From assembly GCA_948433435.1 (NCBI GenBank), contig CAOJDX010000001.1:17564-81563 (forward strand): a stretch of DNA of 64,000 bases, written 5' to 3'. A program made the translations under genes and the position numbers. The DNA comes from an uncultured Clostridia bacterium. GTDB taxonomy: Bacteria > Bacillota_I > Bacilli_A > RF39 > UBA660. The first letter of the stretch is position 1; every line of letters begins with the position of its first letter. Positions 1,677-37,839 of this stretch are shown here, piece after piece. The notes beneath the pieces were generated by a model. That model saw only the letters and a program-made list of their open reading frames with translations, was not told where the DNA came from and did no database searches.

Positions 1677-1970
1677 GTGGCTCAAGGTACTTTTATGATG
1701 GATCCAGGACAGATTCAACAAAGTGGAGCAAGATTCCAAAATTTTTCTAATGAATATGCTAACTTAATGAATAGTTTACGTTCTACAATAGAAGATTTGG
1801 GAAGTTGTTGGAAATCAGAAGATTATAATCAATTTGTAGCAATTTATCAGCAAAATGCAGAGACGATTGATCAAATGAGTAAGGCATTTGCTTCGTTTGG
1901 TGAAATTTTAACAGAAACAGGAACTGGCGCTACACAAGCTAGTGAAGATCTTAGATCATCATTTAATTAA
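1677..1970 (+). CDS. WXG100 (ESAT-6/EsxA)-like small helical protein
   Basis: 97 aa with a GTG start 7 nt after TAGGAGGTG. Predicted helix-turn-helix with a central Trp (CWKSED, W-x-S rather than W-x-G). It sits with a second WXG-like gene, an LXG-like gene and DUF4176. Confidence 0.6.
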   Translation: MAQGTFMMDPGQIQQSGARFQNFSNEYANLMNSLRSTIEDLGSCWKSEDYNQFVAIYQQNAETIDQMSKAFASFGEILTETGTGATQASEDLRSSFN

Positions 1971-1986
1971 GAGAGGAGATGTGAAT

Positions 1987-2307
1987 ATGAACGGTACAAC
2001 ATTTGATCATGGAAAAGCAGTTCAAGATGCTGAACAAATTTTAAGTATTGCTAGTCGAGTAGAATCATTGTTTAGTGAAACTGATGCTGAAATTCAGAAA
2101 GTGCAACAATACTGGCAAACTACAACAGCAGCACAATCAGCAGATAATGCAGTTTCATTATATAATAGTTATAAAGCTAATTTTGCTAATTTTTTAAGTA
2201 AAATTAAGGAAAAAGCAAACGAAATTTATCGTTCTAGTGAAACTTATACTGGTGTAGAATCTGCAGCAAATAAAGCAGTTGATGCTGGATATCAAATTAA
2301 TGGATAG
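1987..2307 (+). CDS. second WXG100-like small helical protein
   Basis: ATG at 1987 lies 8 nt after GAGAGGAG; the ORF-track start at 1942 overlaps the previous gene and has no RBS. 106 aa, helical, central Trp (QQYWQTT). Confidence 0.5.
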   Translation: MNGTTFDHGKAVQDAEQILSIASRVESLFSETDAEIQKVQQYWQTTTAAQSADNAVSLYNSYKANFANFLSKIKEKANEIYRSSETYTGVESAANKAVDAGYQING

Positions 2308-2397
2308 GAATATATTGCATATATGCAATATATTGTAAGTGAAAGAGTCTAAACTCTTTTATTTACAATGTTTTACATATTGAATGGAGGAATAAAA

Positions 2398-2955
2398 ATG
2401 GCAGAGATTAGAAGTATTGAAGATTGTTTTGACTATCATGGTGAAATAACTAAAGTTTTAGCTAGAATAACTGATTTTACATCTAAATTAAACAATGAAA
2501 GAAAGAATTTGAATAATAATGATCAATATTATGGAGCAAAGACTTTTTCTTGTGGGAATTATGTTCCTATTAAAACAAAAATGAAAGCAATAGATGCAGA
2601 TATATTACTAGTAATTAATGATTTAAAAGATGCTTACAAAAGTATTAAAACAAGTTTCTACAATAAGGCAGTAAATGATCTTAATCAATTGATAAATTAT
2701 TGTGATCAAAAAATTAATAAATATGAGCAAATGAAAGCTGAAATAACTAGAAATCAGAAAAAGTCTCCTGTTACTGATGGAAAAGTTCTTCCTAATTTTA
2801 ATAAAGAATCGACAATTTCTTTTGAATCTGTTATTTCTAGTGCTGATAAAGTTGCTTATGAGCTAGGAATAAAAAATAAGGTAATTGCTCAAAAAAAATT
2901 AAAACAGATTGAAATTGAATATAACGGGACAACAGGGGAGGAAATATTCGCATGA
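2398..2955 (+). CDS. hypothetical alpha-helical/coiled-coil protein (possible LXG-associated targeting factor)
   Basis: ATG at 2398 is preceded by GGAGGA. 185 aa, Lys/Asn-rich and helical. Its stop overlaps the next start (ATGA), implying translational coupling to the LXG-like gene. Confidence 0.45.
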   Translation: MAEIRSIEDCFDYHGEITKVLARITDFTSKLNNERKNLNNNDQYYGAKTFSCGNYVPIKTKMKAIDADILLVINDLKDAYKSIKTSFYNKAVNDLNQLINYCDQKINKYEQMKAEITRNQKKSPVTDGKVLPNFNKESTISFESVISSADKVAYELGIKNKVIAQKKLKQIEIEYNGTTGEEIFA

Positions 2956-4544
2956 GTACAATGGAAATGAATATAAACTATGATAATTTAGAGGAATGTT
3001 TAATTATTTTAGAAAAATCAAATCGTAATTTTTCAGATTTGGCAGAGGAAATCTTAGTGATTCAGAAAGAATTTAAGAGTACTTACTCTGATGTGGATGG
3101 TATAGCAGATGCTATTAGAGGTACTGAACGTGCATATTATGATATATGTGAACAAGTACTGCATGATGAGGGAAATGCTATGGCTATGATTAACGATATT
3201 ATCAGAAGGTTTGATTCTTTAGAAAAAGATGCAAATGGTAAGGCTAATGTTGATCGTGATAAGTATTTAAAAATGTTAAAAGAATTTAGTTATAGTTATG
3301 GAATTCCAAATTCAAGTCAGTCAATGTTAGGTGGAGTTTTAGGTGGAGCGATAAGTTCTATGATTTCTCAAGCTGCTAATCAAGTTTCTAGTGATTCTCC
3401 TGATAATCTTACGGCGGGTATCACTTCTGTTATGAATGAAGCTCTTAGAGAAGATGAAATTGATCCTGGTAATTCTTCTACAACTTCGGCTGAAGTATCT
3501 ACTAGTTCAGCAAGTATCTCTACTAGCTCGTCAGGATTTTCTTCTCCTGTTGCTAGTGCTAGTATTCCTACCTATCAAACCAATGCTACCGTTGCTAGTA
3601 CTGGTGTACTAGCTAGTCCAGTAGTAGCTAATGCTAGTAAAACTGCTAGAACTTATATTGATTCTACTAAAGAATCGGTTAAAAGAAAGAAAAAGAAAGT
3701 TGAAAAAAATTTAGTTAAAGAATCTATTGAAGATCTACGTGATGATGATCGAAATCTTACATATGAAGAGGTGGGCCCTAAACCACCTATGCCTAAACCT
3801 AAATTACCTATTGTTGAAGAACAAATACCAACACCAGAACCAGGTCCACAAGTTCCTTCTGCAGATATTCCACCTACTGATATTCCAACCGATAATAATA
3901 ATCCTGCTGATAATATAACTACTGAAAATCCATCTGTTAATAATGATACTCAACCAAGTTATACTAATCAATCTAATAGTGGTACAAATCTTGGTGGAGT
4001 AAAGCAAACAGTAGCTGTAAAGAAACCTGTTTTTGCTCAGAATTCAACTGCTGTAAGTGATAGTAGCAGTGGTATTGTTGGTGATAGTGTAACTCCAATT
4101 ACTGATAGCATTAATAATGGGAATACAACTGATTTGTTTGACACAACAACGGATGATTTTTCAAGATTTGAAGATTCGATTTCTTCAGTGGGTAATAATT
4201 CTTCAACTGGTGGTTCAGGTGTAATTCCTATTGTCGCTGGTCTTGGGGCTGCAGCAGCAGTTGGTGTGGGAGCTAAAATTTATAAAGATAGAAAAGAAAA
4301 TAATGATTTAGATTTAAATGAAGATCGTTTATCTAATGAAAATAAATTTTGGACTACAGAGGATAGTATGGTTATTCATAGCGAAAAGGATGAATATGAT
4401 GGAAATATTGATTATTCTGTTGGCGAAGATACTCCTTCCTATACAGCTGTTGACAATTCTATAGATGATAGTCAAAAGGATACCTGGGAGATATCTGATG
4501 TGGATAGTAGTAATCAGATGATAGATTTGTTAGGAAATGAGTAG
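2952..4544 (+). CDS. LXG-like N-terminal domain protein with Ser/Thr/Pro/Asn-rich disordered region and C-terminal TM anchor
   Basis: 530 aa with no N-terminal signal peptide. The N-terminal ~110 aa are helical (DVDGIADAIRGTERAYYDICEQVLH resembles the LXG core). Long low-complexity S/T/N region, a Pro-rich block (KPPMPKPKLP...PEPGPQVP), one TM segment (VIPIVAGLGAAAAVGVGAKIY, nt ~4219-4281), then an acidic tail. Confidence 0.5.
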   Translation: MSTMEMNINYDNLEECLIILEKSNRNFSDLAEEILVIQKEFKSTYSDVDGIADAIRGTERAYYDICEQVLHDEGNAMAMINDIIRRFDSLEKDANGKANVDRDKYLKMLKEFSYSYGIPNSSQSMLGGVLGGAISSMISQAANQVSSDSPDNLTAGITSVMNEALREDEIDPGNSSTTSAEVSTSSASISTSSSGFSSPVASASIPTYQTNATVASTGVLASPVVANASKTARTYIDSTKESVKRKKKKVEKNLVKESIEDLRDDDRNLTYEEVGPKPPMPKPKLPIVEEQIPTPEPGPQVPSADIPPTDIPTDNNNPADNITTENPSVNNDTQPSYTNQSNSGTNLGGVKQTVAVKKPVFAQNSTAVSDSSSGIVGDSVTPITDSINNGNTTDLFDTTTDDFSRFEDSISSVGNNSSTGGSGVIPIVAGLGAAAAVGVGAKIYKDRKENNDLDLNEDRLSNENKFWTTEDSMVIHSEKDEYDGNIDYSVGEDTPSYTAVDNSIDDSQKDTWEISDVDSSNQMIDLLGNE

Positions 4545-4553
4545 GAGGAGTTT

Positions 4554-4886
4554 ATGGAAGAAATAAATTATTTACCAATTGGTACAGTTGTTTTGCTAAA
4601 GGGTGGTTCAAAGAAAGTAATGATTAATGGTTTTTGTGTAATTCCTAATGATAATCAACATAAGTTGTATGATTATTCTGGTTGTTTATATCCTGAAGGA
4701 ATTATTAATTCTAATGAGGTATGTTTATTTAATAGGGAACAAATAGATAGAATTTTTTTTAGGGGATATGAAAATGAAGAGGAAGTTATTTTTAAGGAAG
4801 AGCTTATTAAATCTATTGGTGATTTTCAATTAGATCAAGATCATAATATTATCGATGATCATTTATCTATTAGTGAGCTTCAATAA
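4554..4886 (+). CDS. DUF4176 family protein (T7SS-associated)
   Basis: 110 aa with RBS AGGAGGAG upstream. Hallmark motifs LPIGTVVLLKGG..KVMI, YDYSGCLYPEG, FNREQID.IFFRGYENEEE. Confidence 0.7.
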   Translation: MEEINYLPIGTVVLLKGGSKKVMINGFCVIPNDNQHKLYDYSGCLYPEGIINSNEVCLFNREQIDRIFFRGYENEEEVIFKEELIKSIGDFQLDQDHNIIDDHLSISELQ

Positions 4887-4989
4887 GTTATAAATACATA
4901 TTGAAGTTTTTTATGAAATCTCTTTATTTATATTTTATATAAATTTTCTTTTTTTGATTAATTGGATTTATTTTTATTATTCTATTTAT

Positions 4990-5014
4990 AACTTGGAGAA
5001 ATCCAAGTTTTTTG
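4990..5014 (+). terminator. rho-independent terminator after the DUF4176 gene
   Basis: Perfect 8-bp stem AACTTGGA/TCCAAGTT with a GAAA loop, followed by a T-run. Confidence 0.7.
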
Positions 5015-5021
5015 GTATAAT
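5013..5021 (+). promoter_or_regulatory. extended -10 promoter element for lepA
   Basis: TGgTATAAT lies ~20 nt upstream of the lepA start, immediately after the terminator. Confidence 0.4.
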
Positions 5022-5041: not shown

Positions 5042-6853
5042 ATGAAACAGAATAATATTAGAAATTTTTCCATTATTGCACACATTGATCATGGAAAAAG
5101 TACTTTGGCAGATAGAATTTTGGAAGAATGTGGCTCTGTTACTAAAAGAGAAGCTAAGGATCAAATACTTGATTCTATGGATATTGAAAGGGAACGAGGT
5201 ATTACTATTAAGCTTAATACAGCGACAATGCAGTATACTTATGCAGGTGAAGAATATTTGCTTAATTTGATTGATACTCCAGGACATGTTGATTTTTCGT
5301 ATGAAGTTAGTAGAAGTTTGGCCTCTAGTGATGGAGCTATTTTAGTAGTAGATGCTACTCAAGGAATTGAGGCTCAGACATTGGCTAATTTATATCTGGC
5401 AATGGAAAATGAGCTTACGATTATTCCTGTTATCAATAAAATAGATTTACCTAATGCTAATATTGAAAAGGTAAAAAAAGAGTTGATTGATTTAGTTGGT
5501 TTTAAAGATGAAGAAATAGTTTTAACTAGTGCTAAAACAGGTGTTGGAATTCGGGCTTTAGTTGAGGCTATTATTAAATATATCCCAGCACCTACTGGTG
5601 ATGTTATGAAACCTTTACAAGCTTTGATCTTTGATAGTATCTTTGATAGTTATAGAGGAGTTATTATTTCTAGTCGTATTGTTAATGGTTGCCTAAAAGT
5701 AGGAGATACGATTAAAATGCATCAATCTGATAAGGAATATATTGTAACAGAACTTTTTATCACAACTCCTAAAGAAAAAACAGTAAAACAGTTATCTGTT
5801 GGAGAGGTTGGTCATATTGTTGGTTCAATTAAAGATATAGCAACTGTTAAAGTTGGTGATACAATTACTAGTTTAGAAAATTATACAGATTTATCATTAC
5901 CAGGTTATAAACCAATGAAGTCAATGGTTTTTTGTGGACTATATCCAATTGAAAGTGTTAAATTTGAAGCTTTGAGAGAAAGTTTAAATAAACTTAAATT
6001 AAATGATGCTTCTCTTGAATTTGTTCCAGAAACTTCGACTGCCTTGGGTTTTGGTTTTCGTTGTGGTTTTTTAGGACTTTTACATATGGATATTATAAAG
6101 GAAAGAATTACAAGAGAATTTGGAATAGATATTATTACGACTGCTCCTAGTGTTATTTATGAGGTGATTTTAACTAGTGGTGATATTTTAGAAATTTCTG
6201 CCCCAAATTTAATGCCTGATAAAAGTAAAATTAAAGAAGTTAGGGAACCATATATTAAAACTAATATTTTTGCTCCTAGCAATTATATTGGTTCTATTAT
6301 GGAATTGTGTCAGGAAAGGCGTGGAACTTATATAGGAATTGATTATATTGATTCTACTCGTGTTAATATTCATTATGAACTACCTTTATCGGAAGTTGTT
6401 TATGATTTTTTTGATCGACTAAAATCGGCAACAAAAGGTTATGCTTCTTTTGATTATGAAATAATTGGCTATAAGTGTAGTAATCTTGTTAAAATGGATA
6501 TTTTATTAAATAGTGAAGTCATTGATGCTTTAAGTATTATTGTTCATAAAGATTTTGCCTATTATAGAGGAAAAAGTGTGGTGGAACATTTAAAGGAAAG
6601 CATTCCTAGACAGCTTTTTGAAATTCCTATTCAGGCAGCTATTGGAACTCATATCATTGCTAGAAGTACAGTCAAAGCTTTAAGGAAAGATGTGCTTGCT
6701 AAGTGTTATGGAGGGGATGTATCTCGAAAGAAAAAACTTTTAGAGAAGCAAAAAGCAGGTAAAAAGAAGATGAAGAGAATAGGTAGTGTAGAATTACCAC
6801 AGGAAGCTTTTATGAGTGTTTTAAGTGTTGATGGAGATAATCATGTTAAGTAA
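5042..6853 (+). CDS. lepA: elongation factor 4 (LepA)
   Basis: 603 aa. GTPase motifs [31 protein letters not shown], and a conserved LepA C-terminal region. Confidence 0.95.
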
Positions 6854-7106
6854 GGAAAGACAGGATTTGGTAGATGCAAAAATTTTAAAAACAGTGCAGG
6901 TCTTTTTAGATTATCATTGTAGAATTAGTGATCAAAGATTAGGGGAAGTTTTACAAATTCCAAAGTCAACTGTAGGCAGATATTTAACAAGCGAGAGGAC
7001 AAAACAATTGATTGGAATAGATAATTATGCTTATATTAAAAAGGAACGAAATGTGAATAAGTTATTAGGAAGAAGAAAAGGGGGAAGCAAAAAGAGTAAT
7101 GGTTAA
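6843..7106 (+). CDS. small HTH DNA-binding protein, SpoIIID-like
   Basis: 87 aa from the ATG at 6843 (RBS GGAGA; ORF-track start is 6825). The [17 protein letters not shown] resembles SpoIIID VSKSTVHKDLTERL. Basic C-terminal tail. Confidence 0.35.
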
Positions 7107-9483: not shown

Positions 9484-11205
9484 TTACTTTGGAAACATTG
9501 GAACATTTATTTCGTTATTTATTTCTTGTTTTTTGCTATTATCTAGTGATGTATTTCCGTTGATGAGAGGAATTATAGGAGTTTGTTGAAGTGGGGGTTG
9601 ATTATTGCTATCTGTTTTTTGGCTCTGAACTATATTTGTATTCTTTTTTGCTTTTATGTTTTTGATATTAGGGTTTGGAAAAAAAGATTTACTATGGGAA
9701 TGATCTGCTTTTTTCTTTGGTTTAAAATTTTGAGATTTTGTAGGAATGTTGCTGTTAACTTTTTGCTTAGTAATATCAGGAGTTGGTATTAGATCCTTAC
9801 TTAGTGAAACAGCTTGAGTTGTTGTTATGGGTACTTTTTTTTCAGGGTTAGTATTTTGAATGATTGAGGTTGTATTCTTTTCTACGTTTGTTTGAGAGAT
9901 CTTTTCTATTTGATTGGTTATTTGCTTTTCTTTGTGTTCTTCAGCTCTTAATTCTTGTTCCTTTTTTTCTGTAATTGCTTTATTCATAGTTTGTAAACAG
10001 CTATCATCAATGTCATTATCAATTTCAATAATTCTATATATTTCTTCAAAGGTTGTAAAACCGTCTAAAATTTTTCCTAGTCCATCTTGTAGTAAAGTAA
10101 TTACATTTCCTGTTCCATATACTAAATTTCTTAATTCGGTTTTGTCAGAAACTGCATTGTTAATGGCAGATTTTATATTGTCGTCAATTTCAAGAACTTC
10201 CTGAACAGCAATACGTCCATGATAGCCTTTATTACAACTAGGGCATCCATTTTTATTGGCATCCATAATTTCTTCAATATCTTTTCTTAAGGCTAATTTG
10301 AATACTTTTTTCTCATAGGAAGTTGTTTTTCTTTTGATACAACATTTTGGGCATAGGGCTTTGGCTAGTCTTTGAGAAATAATTCCTGTAATGGCACTTG
10401 AAAGTAAATATTTTTCTACATTCATATCTAATAGTCTTTCAATGGTAGATAAGGAGTTATTTGTATGAATGGTAGATAAAACTAAATGGCCTGTAATTGA
10501 GGCACGAACAGCAATTTGAGCGGTTTCACTATCACGTATTTCTCCAATTAGAATAACATTGGGATCTTGCCTTAAGATAGATCTTAAAACAGTAGAAAAA
10601 TCAAGCCCTATTTCAGAATTTACTTGAACTTGATTAAGTCCTTCAATATTCATTTCTATTGGATCTTCAACAGTTATAATATTTGTTCTTTCTTTATTTA
10701 GTACTTGTAGAATAGAGTAAACAGTAGTACTTTTTCCAGATCCGGTTGCTCCTGTGACTAAGATTATTCCATTAGGAGCTTCAATCATTCTTAATAATTT
10801 TTTGTAATTTTCTTGATTGAATCCTAGTTTGTTTAATCCTGATAAACTTCGAGAATAATCTAAAATACGGATGACTATTTTTTCACCTTCATTTGTTGGA
10901 AGACAAGAAACACGCATATCTAAGTCTTTTCCCCCGAAGTTTCCTTTAATTGCTCCATCTTGAGGTAATCTACTTTCTGTAATATTCATATTTGACATTA
11001 ATTTTAATCTTGTGGTTAAATTTCTTTCATACATTTTAGGAATATAAGCATAATCAGTTAGATCACCATCAACACGGATTCTAACCATTATTCCATTATC
11101 TCGTGGATCAAGATGAATATCAGAAGCTCCACGTCTTGAAGCATCAATTATTATAGCATCTGCAATCTGAGTAATTGGAGTTTTTGCAAAATCAAATGTT
11201 ACCAT
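9484..11205 (-). CDS. GspE/PilB/ComGA-family secretion ATPase with long C-terminal low-complexity extension
   Basis: 573 aa. Walker A GATGSGKST, Asp box, Walker B ILIGEIRD, His box GHLVLSTIHTN, tetracysteine CPKC...CPSC. The core ends near aa 395; the last ~175 aa are K/N/Q/T/P-rich. Confidence 0.85.
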   Translation of the reverse strand: MVTFDFAKTPITQIADAIIIDASRRGASDIHLDPRDNGIMVRIRVDGDLTDYAYIPKMYERNLTTRLKLMSNMNITESRLPQDGAIKGNFGGKDLDMRVSCLPTNEGEKIVIRILDYSRSLSGLNKLGFNQENYKKLLRMIEAPNGIILVTGATGSGKSTTVYSILQVLNKERTNIITVEDPIEMNIEGLNQVQVNSEIGLDFSTVLRSILRQDPNVILIGEIRDSETAQIAVRASITGHLVLSTIHTNNSLSTIERLLDMNVEKYLLSSAITGIISQRLAKALCPKCCIKRKTTSYEKKVFKLALRKDIEEIMDANKNGCPSCNKGYHGRIAVQEVLEIDDNIKSAINNAVSDKTELRNLVYGTGNVITLLQDGLGKILDGFTTFEEIYRIIEIDNDIDDSCLQTMNKAITEKKEQELRAEEHKEKQITNQIEKISQTNVEKNTTSIIQNTNPEKKVPITTTQAVSLSKDLIPTPDITKQKVNSNIPTKSQNFKPKKKADHSHSKSFFPNPNIKNIKAKKNTNIVQSQKTDSNNQPPLQQTPIIPLINGNTSLDNSKKQEINNEINVPMFPK

Positions 11206-11305
11206 ATCAACATCACCCTTTTTATTCTTTACTTTTGTATGGTACTCTACTATAATAATAGTATATAATAGTTCTACAATTTTGACAAGAAAGAAAGGAG
11301 CTTTT

Positions 11306-11971
11306 ATGAAGAAAGTTTTAAATAATAGTGGTTTTGCAATGGTTGAAACACTGATTGCAGCTGTTTCTGTTATTTCTATTTTTGCTCTTTTATATAATTT
11401 AATTTATCCATTGCTAGGAGGATATAAAGCCTCTCAAAATTATGATGATTTGGATAGCAAGTATGTAGCATTTTATGTAAAAGAAATGATTGAAATGGAT
11501 CAAGTGGATATTAGTAAACAACTATTAAATAGAGAATATAATGTTTATCAGACTTATGCTTATATTAATGATCAAGAAGGGGAAAAGAGAGTTAATATTC
11601 ATGATATTGATATTGATCCATCTGGTCAGAGCGAACATTATTATATTAAAAATGAATTATGTGAATTGCTTATTTCAGAAGGTAATATGAAAAATAATCG
11701 TTTTTTTTGTAATAAATATGTAGCAGGAGCGAATGTTACCAAAATTTATTTATTAAAGTATGAAACAACTAATTTTAAGAATATTGTCAAGGATGCTGGT
11801 GGTTTTAGTCGTTCATTTAAAAAGTATGTTGAATATATGCCTACCCATTCAGCTGCAGTAGCAGATAAGAAGAATAATTATTATCGTATTATTGTTGAAA
11901 TTGAGCATGATTCCTATAATACAGCAGGTAATCGATATTATTCTTATGCATCGATAGAGGTGAAAAAATAA
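11306..11971 (+). CDS. prepilin-type N-terminal cleavage/methylation domain protein (pseudopilin)
   Basis: ATG at 11306 after AAAGGAG. Class III signal MKKVLNNSG|FAMVETLIAAV with Glu at +5. 221 aa. Confidence 0.7.
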   Translation: MKKVLNNSGFAMVETLIAAVSVISIFALLYNLIYPLLGGYKASQNYDDLDSKYVAFYVKEMIEMDQVDISKQLLNREYNVYQTYAYINDQEGEKRVNIHDIDIDPSGQSEHYYIKNELCELLISEGNMKNNRFFCNKYVAGANVTKIYLLKYETTNFKNIVKDAGGFSRSFKKYVEYMPTHSAAVADKKNNYYRIIVEIEHDSYNTAGNRYYSYASIEVKK

Positions 11972-12648
11972 TGAAAAAGTTGAATAATAAAGGGATGACT
12001 TTGATTGAATTGTTAATTTCTTTTGCTATTACATCAGCTATTGTTGTCTCAATGTTTAATGTTATTTTAAATTATCAAACAGAGCAATCTACAGAGGCTT
12101 TAAAAAGTGATATTATTGCTTATAAAAATACTATTACTAAATTAATACAAGCTGATATTATTAAGGGGGAGTTAAAAAGTGTAGATATTAAACCAATTAA
12201 GCAAGTTAATAATTATACAGAGTATGGCTTTATACTTACATTTAATCGTAATTTAGGTAGTTCTTCTTTAAGTGATCCTGATTCATTGGGGTCGGGAGGA
12301 GTTTTGGTTAAAGAATTAACCGTTAGAACTAGTAATACCGAGGAAAATTATATTACTTATGATGACATCAATAATAAGGGTGTTTTACAATCTGTAAAAT
12401 ATGCTTTACCTAGTGTTGGAAAAGGAATTATTCCAGCTAAGGATAATCAAAGTACAACTGAGACCAATTTAACTAAATTTACAGCTGTTAGTACCAATGT
12501 TAATGATTATACAAAAGTAGATCCTGTAACTTTTCTTAATTTAGGAATTAATTATTTTGATCTAGATATTACCATTAGTAATAATGAACTTGGAGGGGAT
12601 TATCATATTAAAATTATTGCTCCTCTAAATTACTCTTATTGTAAATAG
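11971..12648 (+). CDS. prepilin-type N-terminal cleavage/methylation domain protein (pseudopilin)
   Basis: MKKLNNKG|MTLIELLISFAIT, a canonical class III signal with Glu at +5. Its start overlaps the previous stop (TAATG). Confidence 0.75.
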   Translation: MKKLNNKGMTLIELLISFAITSAIVVSMFNVILNYQTEQSTEALKSDIIAYKNTITKLIQADIIKGELKSVDIKPIKQVNNYTEYGFILTFNRNLGSSSLSDPDSLGSGGVLVKELTVRTSNTEENYITYDDINNKGVLQSVKYALPSVGKGIIPAKDNQSTTETNLTKFTAVSTNVNDYTKVDPVTFLNLGINYFDLDITISNNELGGDYHIKIIAPLNYSYCK

Positions 12649-14610: not shown

Positions 14611-14770
14611 TTATTTTGGTCATGAAAAGTTTGAAAAAATAAAAATTAAAAAAGGATAAGATTAGAGAAAAGTTAGATTTTTGCCATATTTTAAAGGATT
14701 TTTGGTAAAAAACTCTTTTCTTTTTTTCTTATTTATGATATAATGTTGTTCAATGTTGAGGGGGATAGCT

Positions 14771-16354
14771 ATGAGTAAAATATCGCCAGGTTGGTTATTT
14801 TTTTATAGTTTAGCAACAAAATATTATGAGTATTATGGAGATTTGGATGTTCCTAGTACCTTTAAAACTAGAAATGGTTATGAAAAAGTTAGAGAAAATG
14901 AAGAAGGTATATTTGATTTAGGACAGTGGATTGCTAGACAAAGGTTTGGAAATATTGAAAATGATCATTATAATCTAACAAATAAAAAAAGAGAATTATT
15001 AAATAAAATAGAAATGATCTGGGATGCTAATGAATACAGATGGGATAAACTATATCAGTTGGCTAAAAAATATTATGAACATTATGGGCATTTGGATGTT
15101 TCTGGTACCTTTAAAACTAAAAATGGTTATGAAGAGGATGCGAAAGGATTTCCTTTAGGACAATGGATGAAGTATCAGAGATCAAATTTTAAAGGGAATG
15201 ATTTTTCTTGTTTGAGTGATGAGAAGATAGAAAAATTAAATAAAATAGAAATGATTTGGGATGTTAATGAGTGTAAATGGATTAGGATGTATGAATTAGC
15301 CAAAAAGTATTATGAACATTATGGACATTTAAATGTTTCTAGAACTTTCCGAACAAAAAATGGTTATGATGAAGACGATAATGGCCTTCCTTTAGGACAG
15401 TGGGTACATACACAGAGAAGAAGATATAGAGGAGAACTAAAGGTGGATTTAACTGATAAACAATTATCTTTGTTAGAGAAATTAAATATTATTTGGTTTA
15501 TTAGAAATAAAGATCAGTGCCAAAAGGAACTTATAACTTCTAGTAATAATTTTCGGAAAAAACGAGAAATTTATAACCGCTTTAGAAGTTTTCTTAATGG
15601 AATTTCAAATCATAATACACTTTCTAAGGAAGAAATAAATGAAATGTTTATAAATCAATTAAACAACAAAATTCAGAAGGAAAAGCGGAGAAGTAATGAT
15701 TTAAAGGTAAATTGTTTGGATGAAGCTGTATATGAAACTTTAAAAGATTATGGGTATGAAAATCTTACTGAACGTTTAAAAATATTAATATATTGTATGA
15801 TATTGCATATTGATAAAATGGATCAGGATCAAGATGCTTATCTTGCTTTTACAGAAAAAAATGGTGCGAGAGAATATATTCAATCAAAGGGGAAAGATGC
15901 CCTAATAGATGAAATGAAACAATTATTGCTGTTAGATCATAAAAATGTAGAGAGTATTGAAGACATTTATCAAGAATATGCTAGTAGTTTTTATCATAGA
16001 AAATGTGATAACCAAAAGGTAAATTGCTTAGAAAATGCTTTATATGAAACGATAAAAGATTATGGGTATGATAAATTTTCTGATCGATTAGAATTGCTAA
16101 TATATTGTTTGGTTGAGCATATTGATAGAGCGGATCAATATGAGGAGGCTTGGTTAGCTTTTACGAAAAAAAATGGTGCAAGGGAATATATTCAATCAAA
16201 GGGGAAAGATGCCCTAATAGATGAAATGAAACAATTATTGCTGTTAGATCATAAAAATATAGAGAGTATTGAAGACATTTATCAAGAATATGCTAGTAGT
16301 TTTTATCATAAGAAATATGATAATACTCAATTCCAAAAGAAAAAGAAGAGTTAA
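14771..16354 (+). CDS. helicase-associated (HA) domain repeat protein with duplicated C-terminal module
   Basis: ATG at 14771 after GAGGGGGA. Three ~79-aa HA-like repeats (YY.(E/H)YG.L.V...F.T.NGY......LGQW...QR) are followed by two ~104-aa copies of an unassigned helical module. Confidence 0.6.
   Translation: MSKISPGWLFFYSLATKYYEYYGDLDVPSTFKTRNGYEKVRENEEGIFDLGQWIARQRFGNIENDHYNLTNKKRELLNKIEMIWDANEYRWDKLYQLAKKYYEHYGHLDVSGTFKTKNGYEEDAKGFPLGQWMKYQRSNFKGNDFSCLSDEKIEKLNKIEMIWDVNECKWIRMYELAKKYYEHYGHLNVSRTFRTKNGYDEDDNGLPLGQWVHTQRRRYRGELKVDLTDKQLSLLEKLNIIWFIRNKDQCQKELITSSNNFRKKREIYNRFRSFLNGISNHNTLSKEEINEMFINQLNNKIQKEKRRSNDLKVNCLDEAVYETLKDYGYENLTERLKILIYCMILHIDKMDQDQDAYLAFTEKNGAREYIQSKGKDALIDEMKQLLLLDHKNVESIEDIYQEYASSFYHRKCDNQKVNCLENALYETIKDYGYDKFSDRLELLIYCLVEHIDRADQYEEAWLAFTKKNGAREYIQSKGKDALIDEMKQLLLLDHKNIESIEDIYQEYASSFYHKKYDNTQFQKKKKS
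15704..16324 (+). repeat. in-frame tandem duplication (2 x 312 nt) inside the HA-domain gene
   Basis: Copy A (15704-16015) and copy B (16016-~16324) both open with AAGGTAAATTG. The cores 15861-~15998 and 16173-~16310 differ at only a few positions by eye. Confidence 0.85.
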
Positions 16355-33392: not shown

Positions 33393-35039
33393 TTATTTAT
33401 TAATTATTGAGTATTGTAAATTTTTGAATACTGAATCTAAAATGCTTTGTGTAATAGTGTTTTTTTTGTTTTTAATAATTTCTTTTCTATTTACTGTGAT
33501 GGTAACAGTTCCTTGATTAGCATATATATCTCTTAGTATTACGATTTCTGTAGTGTCTTGCTGATAAATTTTAGAAAAGACAAATGGATTTTCTTTAATT
33601 GTCCAACCTTCAGGCGTCAATATTGGTTTAGATGTTCTAATTGTAACAACAATATCGTTATTTTCATTAATTTCGTAAGTAATACCATCTTTTACTACAG
33701 TAGGAATTTCTTTATCGATGTTGATAACTTGATAAGGTACTTTTTTAGTATTTCCTGCTAAGTCTTTAATTATAACATAACTTGTGATATTCTTGGTAAA
33801 CACTTTATAAATTGACTTTTTATCTTCTGATAGTGTCCAACCGTTTACTGGTTGTAACTCCTCTGTTGCTATTATTGTAACAGTAACATCTTGATTGGTC
33901 ATTTGTCCATTATTACTAGTAGTAACAATAACATCCCCAAAATCTCTATCAATGTTTTTCACTTGATAAGTTATTTCTTTAGTATTTCCTGCTAGATCTT
34001 CTATTATAATACTATCTATTATATTATTTTCAAATGTTTTTGTAATTGTTGTTCTGTCTTTGGATAATGTCCAACCAGGAACCTCTTTTATTATTTCATT
34101 TGCTTTAATAGTTACAGTTACATTTTTGTTCGTTGGTTTATCGTTATTGCTGGTTTTTATCTCGAATTCTGGAGCTGTTTTATCAATAATAAAGGTTATT
34201 TCTTCTTGATTGTAGGCATTATCTATCGCAATAATATTGTAACTTCCCTCTTGGTCTATGTTTAGCATTTCTTGAGGAGAAATTTCGTTCCCATTTATTA
34301 TAAGCATTTTTAAGTTTTCTTCTGTAATAATTAATGTAACATTCTCTTTTGTATAGCTTCCATTAAGAATGCCACTAATAATTGGTTTTTGATCATCATC
34401 AAGAATTTTATTTACATTGTTTAAAATGGTTTCTAATTCTGTCTTAATTATTAAGTCAGTAATGCTTTCTACTTGTTGAATAATTTGATTATCATCTCTA
34501 TAATTTTTAGCAGAAATAATGTCTTTTTTGTCTTTGGCACTTAAAACCAGTTGTTGTAAATTTGAAACTAGATTTTTAATTTTAGTATAATCAATAGGAC
34601 CAGTTTCTGGAGGAATTTCAGGTGTATCAGGTTGGTTTGAATTATTGTTGTCATTATTTTCTCCATTATTTGACGAAGAGTCCTGATTTCCGGAGTCTGG
34701 AATAGAGGGAGAATTATTATCAGTTGTACCGTTGTTATTACCGGGTTTTTGAGTGGTAGAATTATTTTCTCTGTTTGATGAATCATTATAGAAATTATTG
34801 CTATTAGCCAGATTATCTATTTCATTAATATCTAACATTACATCATCGGTTTCCATATCTTCATAGTTGTATGAATCTTTTTGATTATTTGATATATTAT
34901 CATTGTTTTGATTTGATGTGTTGGAAATGTTATTAACTGTTTTTTCTTCAATTTCTAGTTCATTTGGATTAGCAAACACAAAGGTTCCTAAACATAAAAA
35001 TAATACAATTGCTATTATACTAATTTTTTTCTTATTCAT
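33393..35039 (-). CDS. secreted protein with Asn/Ser/Asp-rich linker and three Ig-like repeats
   Basis: 548 aa. Signal peptide MNKKKISIIAIVLFLCLGTFVFA, a low-complexity N/S/D/P region, then three ~75-aa repeats (TN.(N/D)VTVTI.A.E......GWTLS.D...I.K.F..N......I.DLAGNTK...Y.V.NID). Confidence 0.6.
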   Translation of the reverse strand: MNKKKISIIAIVLFLCLGTFVFANPNELEIEEKTVNNISNTSNQNNDNISNNQKDSYNYEDMETDDVMLDINEIDNLANSNNFYNDSSNRENNSTTQKPGNNNGTTDNNSPSIPDSGNQDSSSNNGENNDNNNSNQPDTPEIPPETGPIDYTKIKNLVSNLQQLVLSAKDKKDIISAKNYRDDNQIIQQVESITDLIIKTELETILNNVNKILDDDQKPIISGILNGSYTKENVTLIITEENLKMLIINGNEISPQEMLNIDQEGSYNIIAIDNAYNQEEITFIIDKTAPEFEIKTSNNDKPTNKNVTVTIKANEIIKEVPGWTLSKDRTTITKTFENNIIDSIIIEDLAGNTKEITYQVKNIDRDFGDVIVTTSNNGQMTNQDVTVTIIATEELQPVNGWTLSEDKKSIYKVFTKNITSYVIIKDLAGNTKKVPYQVINIDKEIPTVVKDGITYEINENNDIVVTIRTSKPILTPEGWTIKENPFVFSKIYQQDTTEIVILRDIYANQGTVTITVNRKEIIKNKKNTITQSILDSVFKNLQYSIINK

Positions 35040-35490
35040 TTAAACTCAACATCCTATCTTACTATTCTATTCTTATAACATTATATCATTATTTAGAAAA
35101 ATTACAACCATAATTTGTCGCATTTTAGTGAATTTTTGAATTTTTTTAGTGATAAGTAGTTTATTAATGTGTTTCAATACTGAAAATTTAATGTTAATAA
35201 AAATACAAGTTTGTTTGATGCTGTAATATAAAAGATGACTCACAAAAAGTATAATTCGCTTTTGTTTGTAATAATTTTAATAAGACCTACATCGTAGTAA
35301 ACTAAGTAAATTGCGAATGTGTTTTAGAAATTAAAAATGAAAAGAGTATATGAATTCCAAGATACGATTATGCGCAGTAATCAAGGAATCATATACTCAT
35401 CAATTAATCTTATTAATATTGCATCCAAAAATGAAGAGTTTAAAGAAATGTATAATCTTTTGATTATTTGGGATCAAGTATGATTTATAT

Positions 35491-36018
35491 TTAGAAAAAT
35501 TTCAATTTATTAATTGGCCATATTCTTAAAGTAATCCTTCCTGTGATATCCTTTTTGTTTATTAATCCTATTTTTCTACTATCTAATGAGTTAGAACGAT
35601 TGTCTCCCAAAACTAAATACATATTTTCAGGGATTACTTCATATCCTAACTCTTGTAGATGAAAATCTGTATAGGTTAAATTTTTATTTAAGTATTTTTC
35701 TTGATATATTTTATTGTTGATATATAGTTGATTATTAACTATTTTTATTTTGTCTCCAGGTATACCAATGACTCTTTTGATTAGGTATTTTGTATCTGCA
35801 TAATTCAACGAAACAATATCTCCTCTTTCAATAGTAACAAAATGATATCTTAATTTGTTTAATATTAAGACTTCACCGTTTTTTAATGTTGGACTCATAG
35901 ATTCGCCTACTACTTGGGTAATTGAAACTACATAAATAATGATCACCATTATGCTAAAGATTATAAAAATGTATTTTATGGTGTCTAATAAATATTCTCT
36001 TATACTTAACCAATCCAT
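35491..36018 (-). CDS. lepB: signal peptidase I (LepB/SipS type, S26A)
   Basis: 175 aa. N-terminal TM, VVGESMSPTL (catalytic Ser), KRVIGIPGD (catalytic Lys), GDNRSNSLDSR. Confidence 0.9.
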   Translation of the reverse strand: MDWLSIREYLLDTIKYIFIIFSIMVIIIYVVSITQVVGESMSPTLKNGEVLILNKLRYHFVTIERGDIVSLNYADTKYLIKRVIGIPGDKIKIVNNQLYINNKIYQEKYLNKNLTYTDFHLQELGYEVIPENMYLVLGDNRSNSLDSRKIGLINKKDITGRITLRIWPINKLKFF

Positions 36019-36168
36019 ATTGTTTCCTACCTATCTGCATTATTATATTCTACTAAAGTATATAATATATATTACTTATTTGCAAGTAATAAATTTATTT
36101 TAACCCACAATGAAAACAGGTAAGGAATATATTTTTTCATTACTTTTTCAAGATAATTAATTGAATTG

Positions 36169-37818
36169 TTAAACTCCGTTATTTATTATAAATTGTATAT
36201 CACTATTATTTTGTTCCAAATTATCATTAGCAGGTATTGGTTCATTTAGGTTATTGTTATAGTTTTCTATACTATTATCACTTAAATTATTTGAATTACT
36301 AGTGGTACTATTCTCTGTTTCCTTCTCTTTTTTTATTTTAAATGATATGTGAGTATTTTTATTTTCTTCTGTTTTAGTAAAAGATTCTTTTATTATATTT
36401 TCATTAAATTCTTCCATTATTGTGTTCATTAAAAGAATTAATTCATCGTCTGTAAGATTATCATTATTAGAATATACCAAATTAAAGTTAATGAAATCGT
36501 CTGTTTCGTTTTGGATTTCTATTGGAATAATCTTTATTTTATTGTGTATAGTTGATGTTGATATTTCAATTAATAAACAGTTAGTCTCATCTTTTATCAA
36601 AAAATAAGCTTTTTGTGGACTTAGGGTGTTAGTTTGGGTAATGCTTGCTAAAATATCTTCTCTAATAGTTATTTTTTCTTTTAGATTTTGGGTTATATTG
36701 CTGAAAATGTCTAAACTTGCCATAAAAACGCTGAGCATGTGTTCATAATTATCATGATAGATGAAAAATTCGTTATCTGTTACTGAGGTATAAATACAAT
36801 CCATAATGTTGGGTTCTATTTTAATAAACTCCTCAGAAGGATATGTTATTCCATCAATTATCTCCTGATTTAATATGATGGTTCCAATATCATTTTTAGA
36901 TTTAATATAGTTTTTAATTAAAGATATTTCGTTGCTTGTAAAAGAATAATATTTATTTAGATAATAAGTAAATATATCCTCTATTTGAATAGTATCCATT
37001 GTTGTAAAAACCATTACTCCACTATTGTTGTTTTCATTATTTTCATAATAAGTACGAGCATAACCAAGAAAGTTTTCATCTTCCTGGTAGGTATATTGAT
37101 TGGTATCTTCTTGATAGTTAAGTTTAATTCCTAGTAGATTAAAGGAAGAGTCTGTAATTTCGGCAGTTTTAATATAACTACTTATTTCTTTGTTATATTT
37201 TTTGTACTTATCTTTTGCTATTAATGAATTTATGATCATAGTTTGAAGATCAGAGTTGCTTATTTTGGAATTAGTATTTTTCACTTCATTTGAAGTATTT
37301 GTTATATGATACTCTTCATGATAATTATATTCTTTATAGCGAAATGGAATTTCATCATTGATAGACTCATTTATTTGAACTGAAATATCTAAATATTGCT
37401 TACTGATTGCATCTTCACTAGTTTCTGATTTAATTAGATTACCTTCAGTTAGATTACAAGTGATTCTAACATTGAAAGGATTAGTATCTGAAAATGTAAT
37501 TTCATTTTTAGCAGTACTACATTCGTCTGGTAAGATAAGATTGTATACATCTTTTTCTACTACTCCTAAATCAGCTGTGTTCTTTGATAGGGAAAATTCT
37601 AAAATGGCTTCGTTGGCATCAATTGAAATTAAATTCATTGGAGCATTATTTTCCGTTTCTAATGAAATTATATTTGAATTATATTTTAGAATTTCATTTT
37701 CTCTAATCATAAATTTTGTATATGATGTTGGATATGCAGAAAAATTAATTATTCCTAAAACAATTAATGTAAAACTCATAATTTGGATAGTTTTTGAATG
37801 CTCTTTTACTCTTTTCAT
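36169..37818 (-). CDS. hypothetical secreted protein with SipW-cognate-like N-terminus
   Basis: 549 aa with RBS AGGAGG. N-terminal TM/signal MSFTLIVLGIINFSAYP followed by TSYTKF, the motif class shared with the 223-aa and 206-aa proteins. No recognisable domain; Asn-rich C-terminus. Confidence 0.5.
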   Translation of the reverse strand: MKRVKEHSKTIQIMSFTLIVLGIINFSAYPTSYTKFMIRENEILKYNSNIISLETENNAPMNLISIDANEAILEFSLSKNTADLGVVEKDVYNLILPDECSTAKNEITFSDTNPFNVRITCNLTEGNLIKSETSEDAISKQYLDISVQINESINDEIPFRYKEYNYHEEYHITNTSNEVKNTNSKISNSDLQTMIINSLIAKDKYKKYNKEISSYIKTAEITDSSFNLLGIKLNYQEDTNQYTYQEDENFLGYARTYYENNENNNSGVMVFTTMDTIQIEDIFTYYLNKYYSFTSNEISLIKNYIKSKNDIGTIILNQEIIDGITYPSEEFIKIEPNIMDCIYTSVTDNEFFIYHDNYEHMLSVFMASLDIFSNITQNLKEKITIREDILASITQTNTLSPQKAYFLIKDETNCLLIEISTSTIHNKIKIIPIEIQNETDDFINFNLVYSNNDNLTDDELILLMNTIMEEFNENIIKESFTKTEENKNTHISFKIKKEKETENSTTSNSNNLSDNSIENYNNNLNEPIPANDNLEQNNSDIQFIINNGV

Positions 37819-37839
37819 TATTGATACCTCCTATTTTCC

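Follow-up and report, generated by a model that had tools for sequence, protein, structure and literature searches.

Work on type VIIb secretion systems (T7SSb) has centred on the LXG toxins of a few cultured pathogens. DUF4176 proteins have been shown experimentally to be toxin-specific T7SSb substrate chaperones (the Ltc type), which fold a disordered amphipathic helix of their cargo (PMC12478183). The family has a class of small proteins of 70-130 amino acids, whose genes are found most often close to genes conferring immunity to TspA and TelD, two membrane toxins, and the 2025 paper that defined this class left open what its members bind (PMC12478183). For TspA, secretion tests have included two small helical partner proteins together with a DUF4176 protein (PMC11322744), while the zipper of EsxX occupies residues 448-479 and the key glycines of TelE lie at 466-474 (PMC10434224, PMC12744356). 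We analysed a 64,000-nucleotide stretch of DNA from an uncultured Clostridia bacterium (contig CAOJDX010000001.1; the whole stretch is called the window below) and describe in it a cassette of five genes, g1 to g5, in which the already known accessory families WXG100 and DUF4176 accompany a 530-amino-acid cargo candidate, g4. Literature searches returned, as far as we found, no description of the architecture, family or conserved position of this cargo. We propose, with somewhat less than even confidence in the proposal taken as a whole, that g1 to g5 make up a single operon, inherited vertically and serving as an export module in the type VIIb style, and that g4 is exported and then anchored in the membrane of the producing cell as a surface protein of a new kind.

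The five genes run in the same direction, as an earlier reading of the letters alone (the original prediction) had it:

1677-1970, + strand: g1, 97 amino acids, GTG start at 1677
1987-2307, + strand: g2, 106 amino acids, ATG start at 1987
2398-2955, + strand: g3, 185 amino acids, ATG start at 2398
2952-4544, + strand: g4, 530 amino acids, ATG start at 2952
4554-4886, + strand: g5, 110 amino acids, ATG start at 4554

Start codons were refined by ribosome-binding sites and orthologue N-termini, which replaced GTG 1942 of the open reading frame (ORF) list by ATG 1987 for g2 and placed the start of g3 at ATG 2398 instead of 2368. The tight spacing that had been described is found at three junctions, namely g1-g2 (16 nt), g3-g4 (translationally coupled, with stop and start overlapping as ATGA) and g4-g5 (9 nt), and not at the fourth, since the 90 nt between g2 and g3 are occupied by two strong conserved hairpins. 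The order g1-g5 is kept in more than 10 species-level loci, and the operon is represented at low depth among contigs from mouse-gut metatranscriptomes, so these are not chance ORFs. Sequencing runs that contain the cassette sequence are mostly mouse-gut metagenomes, and an exact-sequence look-up of the first ORF returned no record.

Two of the five proteins belong to known families. The first, g1, is a WXG100 (EsxA-like) protein, scoring 40.7 bits over residues 6-90 against a cut-off of 27.3 for Pfam PF06013 and 46.6 bits against a cut-off of 44.85 for TIGR03930, while g2 falls under both cut-offs (20.9 bits for Pfam, 20.0 bits for TIGR03930). We therefore call g2 WXG100-like, membership not being demonstrated. 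Two WXG-like proteins had been predicted, with the motifs W-K-S and W-Q-T; these are present at W45 and W43, respectively, so that neither protein has W-x-G itself, and the serine or threonine that replaces its glycine is kept in most orthologues. Near its C-terminus, after the second helix, g2 carries a YxxxE motif (Y87-xxx-E91), which recurs as TY(T/S)xVE in all six aligned orthologues. Among the 28 small cassette proteins scanned, WXG100 was the sole recurring family (9-10 of them). A weak match of g1 to PPE (E 0.05) had no parallel in any other cassette protein, and a match of g1 to the 533-amino-acid HA-domain protein at 14753-16354 was spurious (9.6 bits). Profile comparisons with hhalign gave weak links that are suggestive only: g2 with the g4 hairpin (E 1.5e-3), g1 with one small-protein family (E 1.9e-3) and g2 with another (1.2e-3).

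The last gene also bears out its predicted identity: g5 matches DUF4176 (PF13780) over residues 6-78 with 96 bits against a cut-off of 25, matches the crystal structure of a small DUF4176 protein (PDB 9dcs) with an E-value of 4.7e-11, and falls by its length into the small class. A DUF4176 gene follows nearly all g4-type genes seen in context. Downstream of one g4-type gene (L033:3814-4968; related loci are given L numbers) the DUF4176 domain is fused to the N- and C-terminal domains of DUF3048 in a protein of 384 amino acids. The third protein, g3, had been described as helical and was modelled by AlphaFold2 as three long helices (residues 7-40, 58-121 and 148-177) with a mean pLDDT score (predicted local distance difference test) of 66; it matched no Pfam or NCBIfam family.

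The large protein, g4, is built of five parts. It opens with an N-terminal hairpin, followed by a Gly-zipper segment and a disordered stalk; a transmembrane helix that forms a Gly/Ala zipper comes next, and an acidic tail closes the protein. The features that can be placed on the DNA are as follows:

2979-3233, + strand: g4 residues 10-94, fast-evolving two-helix hairpin (AlphaFold2 pLDDT 78-89)
3324-3368, + strand: g4 residues 125-139, MLGGVLGGAISSMIS, strict GxxxGxxxS zipper or amphipathic segment with an invariant G128
4221-4274, + strand: g4 residues 424-441, VIPIVAGLGAAAAVGVGA, transmembrane helix, the sole strongly hydrophobic segment
4275-4541, + strand: g4 residues 442-530, basic juxtamembrane stretch and acidic tail with conserved motifs

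The model of g4 has confident helices at residues 10-44 and 51-94 and low confidence over the remainder. No signal peptide was found in g4. The turn of the hairpin holds V48-D49-G50, which reads (V/I)-(D/E)-G in several orthologues. The strict GxxxGxxxS lies at residues 127-136, distant from the C-terminus, and a helix is modelled over 130-146; the segment 125-139 is one candidate site for binding by DUF4176. The stalk comprises about 270 disordered residues rich in serine, threonine, proline and asparagine. Hydrophobicity on the Kyte-Doolittle scale peaks at 1.94 at residue 432, within a helix made of two interleaved GxxxAxxxG zippers that is the most conserved part of the family and whose motif is present in 136 family members. 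After the helix come the juxtamembrane stretch KIYKDRK and an 80-residue acidic tail with the motifs NENKFWTTEDSxVIHSEKDEY, YxxxD, DTWE and DLLGNE.

The C-terminal part of g4 defines a family of many members. When the g4 alignment was used for an exhaustive profile search, at least 279 clusters matched at E up to 0.001, 158 of them at E up to 1e-10; the matches listed range from about 100 to 1176 amino acids. Their shared module consists of a serine- and threonine-rich run, the helix motif xVIP(I/V)xAGL(G/S)AAAAxG(I/V)GAKxY(M/K)D(R/N)K(K/E)NN and an acidic tail of 49-101 residues with an invariant tryptophan, and their N-terminal parts differ. A second locus type lies beside spoVE(FtsW)-cotZ (L011, L018-L023, L034, L035 and L040) and encodes long paralogues of 430-1473 amino acids, each with two or three proteins of about 95 amino acids upstream. 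These paralogues share an N-domain of about 300 residues that is rich in glycine-containing amphipathic segments, for which Pfam gave no match and a PDB profile search nothing; contigs from human-gut and rumen metagenomes show this arrangement too, in a scan that used a narrower alignment (A6). In L018, an IS200-type transposase-like ORF (4463-4924), recognised by eye from its sequence, is inserted among the small genes of the cassette.

Three results from this family bear on how g4 sits in the membrane. Three members carry CW_7 peptidoglycan-binding repeats and linkers rich in proline and threonine N-terminal to the helix. Over 136 members, the 8 residues that follow the helix hold on average 3.3 lysines and arginines and the 15 that precede it 1.4, and only 3 of the 136 have an N-terminal hydrophobic run. 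Because of these observations we favour a topology in which the N-terminus of g4 would lie outside the cell.

The two ends of g4 evolve at very different rates. Where the LepA of an orthologous locus shares 80-89% identity with that of the window, g1 is 53-93% identical, g2 58-93%, the DUF4176 core of g5 66-79% and the last 120 residues of g4 54-77%, as opposed to only 20-32% for g3 and 24-32% for the g4 hairpin. Because these rates match, g3 would pair with the N-terminus of g4 and g5 with its C-terminus. In more distant relatives, one g1-g2 pair is followed by a tandem duplication of g3-g4-g5, which supports the triad as a functional unit, and one locus has an additional g3-g4 pair. Tandem copies are seen in L024-L029 (10723-15915 in L024) and at L017:3891-5605, and the second g4-type protein of the tandem ends in a different Gly/Ala-rich helix, AGIGAAAAIPLAGMSINSLYKKNKEKK. 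Co-conservation and co-duplication with the g4 C-terminus make g5 its putative binding partner, and g3 is a putative specific partner of the N-terminal hairpin.

We hypothesize that these parts work together in the following way. The WXG100 protein g1 and the WXG100-like g2, with its YxxxE motif, would form a small secreted hairpin pair. Binding of g3 to the fast-evolving hairpin of g4 would create a rod-shaped targeting complex, like those of Lap/LXG or PE/PPE pairs, while in the cytoplasm g5 would cover one of the hydrophobic Gly-zipper segments of g4, the candidates being the transmembrane helix with the tail, or residues 125-139. An EssC-type motor encoded elsewhere would then export the hairpin and the disordered stretch rich in serine, threonine, proline and asparagine, and the Gly/Ala-zipper helix would be retained in the membrane of the producer. 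In its end state, g4 would be a surface-anchored stalk with its N-terminus out and its acidic tail in. The binding partners, the type VII export and the final topology are what we infer from sequence in this scheme.

The scheme assumes type VII machinery for the cassette. EssC, EssB, EssA, YukD and EsaA were found neither in the 64-kb window, nor in the 7 kb upstream of it, nor in the flanks of about 40 related loci, which together with the window amount to about 630 kb including redundancy. For EssC, the search covered the ORFs of the window, its upstream flank, 10 loci from genomes and 11 from metagenomes, and all six frames were swept for long ORFs with multiple Walker A motifs. The largest ORF of the window encodes 952 amino acids, and Pfam assigned 20 of the larger ORFs outside the cassette to housekeeping or unrelated families (among them MutS, AlaRS, the DNA topoisomerase A subunit, DnaK, DnaJ, HrcA, PepF, SpoIVB and FemAB), except for proteins of 548 and 549 amino acids that have no family. 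The original prediction had likewise seen no machinery in the window; to the question it raised, whether EssC lies just upstream, the answer is no, as those 7 kb hold mutL-miaA-rpsT-gpr-spoIIP-sspI, followed by a gene for 343 amino acids. A HerA_C/DUF853 ATPase of the HerA-FtsK superfamily is encoded directly upstream of one cassette (L037:1670-3223); it has a counterpart in no other locus and is probably a coincidence.

The cassette had been predicted to be a T7SSb cargo cassette with an LXG-like large protein and small proteins of the Lap1/Lap2 type. The WXG100 and DUF4176 families of that account stand and its LXG and Lap identities fall. In its strict form, with g4 as a polymorphic LXG toxin, targeting factors of the Lap1/Lap2 type and DUF4176 as the chaperone, we consider it very improbable, and at the level of family membership it is largely refuted. 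The resemblance is real in so far as two small helical proteins, a large protein and a DUF4176 gene recall lap1-lap2-ltc-LXG loci, and a hydrophobic-x-G stands at the turn of the g4 hairpin. However, LXG (PF04740) had no match at E up to 1 in g4, 13 close homologues and 14 N-domains of long paralogues, nor at E up to 0.001 in 76 distant homologues, and the LXG, Lap1 and Lap2 profiles of Pfam and NCBIfam, including DUF3130/TIGR04197 and DUF3958, matched none of 103 g4 relatives and none of the 28 small partner proteins. The g4 hairpin spans about 95 residues as compared with about 200 for an LXG domain, the DUF4176 gene comes after the large gene and not before it, no toxin domain was recognised in g4 and no toxin family in the 76 family members scanned, and no immunity-like gene, including the polytopic DUF443 and the DUF5085 types, was seen in the roughly 40 loci. 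Conservation is also the reverse of that in a polymorphic LXG toxin, with the C-terminus of g4 most conserved and the N-terminus variable. A toxin of another kind is a stronger contender, although we still think it unlikely: g4 might be a secreted membrane-depolarising or pore-forming T7SSb effector like TspA, TelE or EsxX, its helix being toxic and delivered to the membranes of competitors, with g5 keeping it harmless and soluble in the producer and immunity encoded elsewhere. Those toxins are laid out like g4, beginning with a helical targeting domain, continuing with a middle region and carrying a zipper close to the C-terminus, and the TspA secretion experiments and the placement of small DUF4176 genes cited above fit an effector as well (PMC11322744, PMC12478183). 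The near-invariant small residues of the helix may point to oligomerisation, the family has many members in several locus types as polymorphic effector families do, and with one C-terminal module common to the paralogues, a single immunity gene elsewhere could suffice. Against an effector stands the lack of a polytopic (DUF443-type) or DUF5085-type immunity gene in those loci, and the membrane helix reads GxxxAxxxG, not the strict (G/A/S)xxxGxxxG or GxxxGxxx(G/S/T) of zipper toxins. The conserved acidic tail would have to cross the target membrane or remain outside, the supposed toxin end is the constant one and the targeting end variable, and the cassette is single-copy and syntenic with lepA across a deep clade.

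A still less likely alternative needs no type VII system at all. If the lineage has no EssC, g4 could be a tail-anchored protein whose hairpin and disordered region stay in the cytoplasm, forming with g1, g2, g3 and g5 a membrane-tethered complex with a housekeeping or sporulation-linked role. EssC was never adjacent in the related sequence, the genes stand in a core context (gpr-spoIIP and lepA-hemW, with the second locus type beside spoVE-cotZ), and a physiological role would agree with both the vertical inheritance and the strongly conserved sequences of g1, g2 and g5. However, to our knowledge WXG100 and DUF4176 proteins have so far been seen only alongside type VII systems (PMC12478183), WXG100 proteins and FtsK/SpoIIIE ATPases co-occur, and orphan effector modules distant from the ess locus are normal in T7SSb organisms; moreover, the CW_7 repeats of three family members would make no sense in the cytoplasm. 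Our own proposal, export followed by anchoring at the surface, has several points against it. We know of no type VII system that leaves its substrate anchored by a stop-transfer helix, the search for EssC, EssB, YukD and EsaA came back empty, and the LXG and Lap profiles found no match. The tail of g4 has an overall net charge of about -20, which weakens the positive-inside argument. The model of g3 was built from essentially a single sequence, and the g3 and g4 models retrieved only generic helical matches from the PDB in a fold search (E >0.5). As for the two readings that would be novel, type VII display of membrane-held surface proteins, or WXG100 and DUF4176 proteins working without a known type VII machine, we regard that prospect as doubtful.

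Three non-coding elements accompany the genes:

1026-1676, + strand: upstream non-coding spacer, presumed to hold the promoter
2309-2366, + strand: conserved double stem-loop between g2 and g3, seen by folding and covariation
4990-5015, + strand: intrinsic terminator, its perfect 8-bp stem closed by a 4-nt loop and followed by a T-run

The spacer of about 650 bp that the original prediction placed upstream is real, though 414 bp of it (1081-1494) vary between strains of the same organism, being present in L001-L003 and L006 and missing in L004 and L005. This segment is flanked by the 8-bp repeat TTTTGATG; it has no terminal inverted repeats and no second full-length copy within the window, and an Rfam scan of the spacer found no family. 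The double stem-loop comprises a perfect 13+13 palindrome of 26 nt (2309-2334) and a second hairpin (2335-2366), with a folding energy of -25.9 kcal/mol and a z-score of -6.4. It recurs in five other loci (L014:2688-2785, L017:1248-1345, L007:6301-6399, L012:2690-2782 and L024:10621-10727), and RNAalifold found an 18-bp consensus helix with compensatory changes at 9 pairs, visible in L030 and L015. The 3' arm of the first hairpin could extend the second instead, so two mutually exclusive folds are possible. Rfam gave a single sub-threshold match in the cassette region, to a small RNA (2313-2369, 30 bits against a cut-off of 55). One metatranscriptome contig (1463-2486), which covers g1, g2 and the start of g3, reads through the structure. 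It is likely a partial terminator or an element that stabilises the mRNA, and in either role would lift the WXG pair above the downstream genes and so set their ratio. The terminator called perfect in the original prediction is indeed so, its arms AACTTGGA and TCCAAGTT pairing at 4990-5009 ahead of TTTTT. A promoter-like site upstream of lepA (4994-5021: TGGAGA, 16 nt, TATAAT, with a TG-extended -10) overlaps the terminator hairpin.

The position of the cassette is fixed on one side. It lies immediately upstream of lepA in every orthologous locus for which the downstream flank was recovered, and in the window lepA is followed by a small ORF, hemW, a gene for an HD protein and tmk. The upstream neighbour differs between orthologous loci and may be pheST, murC, an AlbA_2 regulator or spoIIP. 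We rejected an origin from a mobile element or phage, as the synteny is fixed. All genome matches are metagenome-assembled genomes of 26-34% G+C that come from the gut of mouse, rabbit and human, and most bear the label 'uncultured Bacilli bacterium'; LepA and DnaK of the window had no relative at 90% identity in the collection searched. The small ORF between lepA and hemW (6825-7106), DNA-binding-like and encoding 87-93 amino acids, is kept in most related loci. Elsewhere in the window, a region at 9484-12648 holds a T2SSE-type ATPase beside genes whose orthologues show an N-methyl (pilin-like) motif, and a minus-strand cluster (33393-41971) encodes the 952-amino-acid protein, which is cadherin-like, and the 549-amino-acid protein without a family, with the 548-amino-acid one nearby.

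The cassette thus attaches WXG100 and DUF4176 proteins to a different cargo, whose helical head is variable, whose stalk is disordered and whose membrane helix and acidic tail are constant. At least 279 clusters, from uncultured Bacilli of gut and rumen, make up the family that this architecture defines. If g4 is a surface anchor, the known functions of type VII secretion would reach beyond toxins, and display of this kind would give gut Bacilli a route to the surface besides Sec and sortase, with PE/PPE-EspG as its counterpart outside Bacillota. As a toxin, g4 would be a widespread zipper toxin for which no immunity gene was found in some 40 loci, and should EssC be absent from the lineage, WXG100 and DUF4176 proteins could no longer be assumed to depend on type VII systems. 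The co-conserved g5 and g4 C-terminus also offer a clean, testable model of what a small DUF4176 protein binds.

Among described systems, the S. aureus tspA locus (lapT1-lapT2-DUF4176-tspA-tsaI), TelE of S. gallolyticus and EsxX of S. aureus ST398 come close. Like g1-g5 they combine two small helical proteins, a protein of about 500 amino acids and a DUF4176 protein, and their large proteins resemble g4 in starting with a helical targeting region, in a middle that is poorly ordered, in a zipper helix of small residues close to the C-terminus and in lacking a Sec signal peptide. The g4 cassette differs from them in having no LXG, Lap1 or Lap2 matches and no DUF443, DUF5085 or polytopic immunity gene, and g4 itself in its conserved acidic tail, constant C-terminus and variable N-terminus. 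The DUF4176 gene of the cassette is downstream of the cargo gene, a further difference, and the cassette is syntenic beside lepA and not in an ess locus or a toxin island.

The TelA/TelB and LtcA/LtcB pairs of S. intermedius resemble g4 and g5 in that a DUF4176 protein is encoded beside a cargo whose long disordered region holds an amphipathic or hydrophobic helix (PMC12478183). The pairing of chaperone and cargo appears to be one to one here as well, with g5 and g4 duplicating together. However, LtcA and LtcB are large DUF4176 proteins (200-250 amino acids) encoded between the lap genes and the toxin gene, whereas g5, with its 110 amino acids, is of the small class (PMC12478183). Ltc binding sites are divergent in sequence, whereas g5 and the C-terminal module of g4, its proposed partner, are both conserved.

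The EsxA/EsxB heterodimers of WXG100 proteins are likewise encoded by two adjacent genes of about 100 codons, as are g1, which exceeds the family cut-offs, and g2, whose YxxxE after helix 2 resembles the YxxxD/E of EsxB-type partners. In contrast to that pair, the glycine of W-x-G is replaced in both g1 and g2, g2 falls below the cut-off and the two genes are not beside essC or eccC. The mycobacterial PE/PPE proteins with EspG offer a functional analogy only. As in g4, the N-domain is a short helical hairpin that continues into a long low-complexity region, there is a separate helical partner and a dedicated cytosolic chaperone, and the family is large, variable and probably surface-exposed. 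Nevertheless, no sequence or significant fold relationship connects them, the phylum and the type VII subtype differ, and the C-terminal membrane helix of g4 has no counterpart in PE/PPE. Finally, the T7SSb substrate TslA of S. aureus reportedly has a reversed domain order, with a constant C-terminal and a variable N-terminal part as in g4; its C-terminus is said to be a helical LXG-like targeting domain, whereas the constant end of g4 is a membrane helix followed by an acidic tail.

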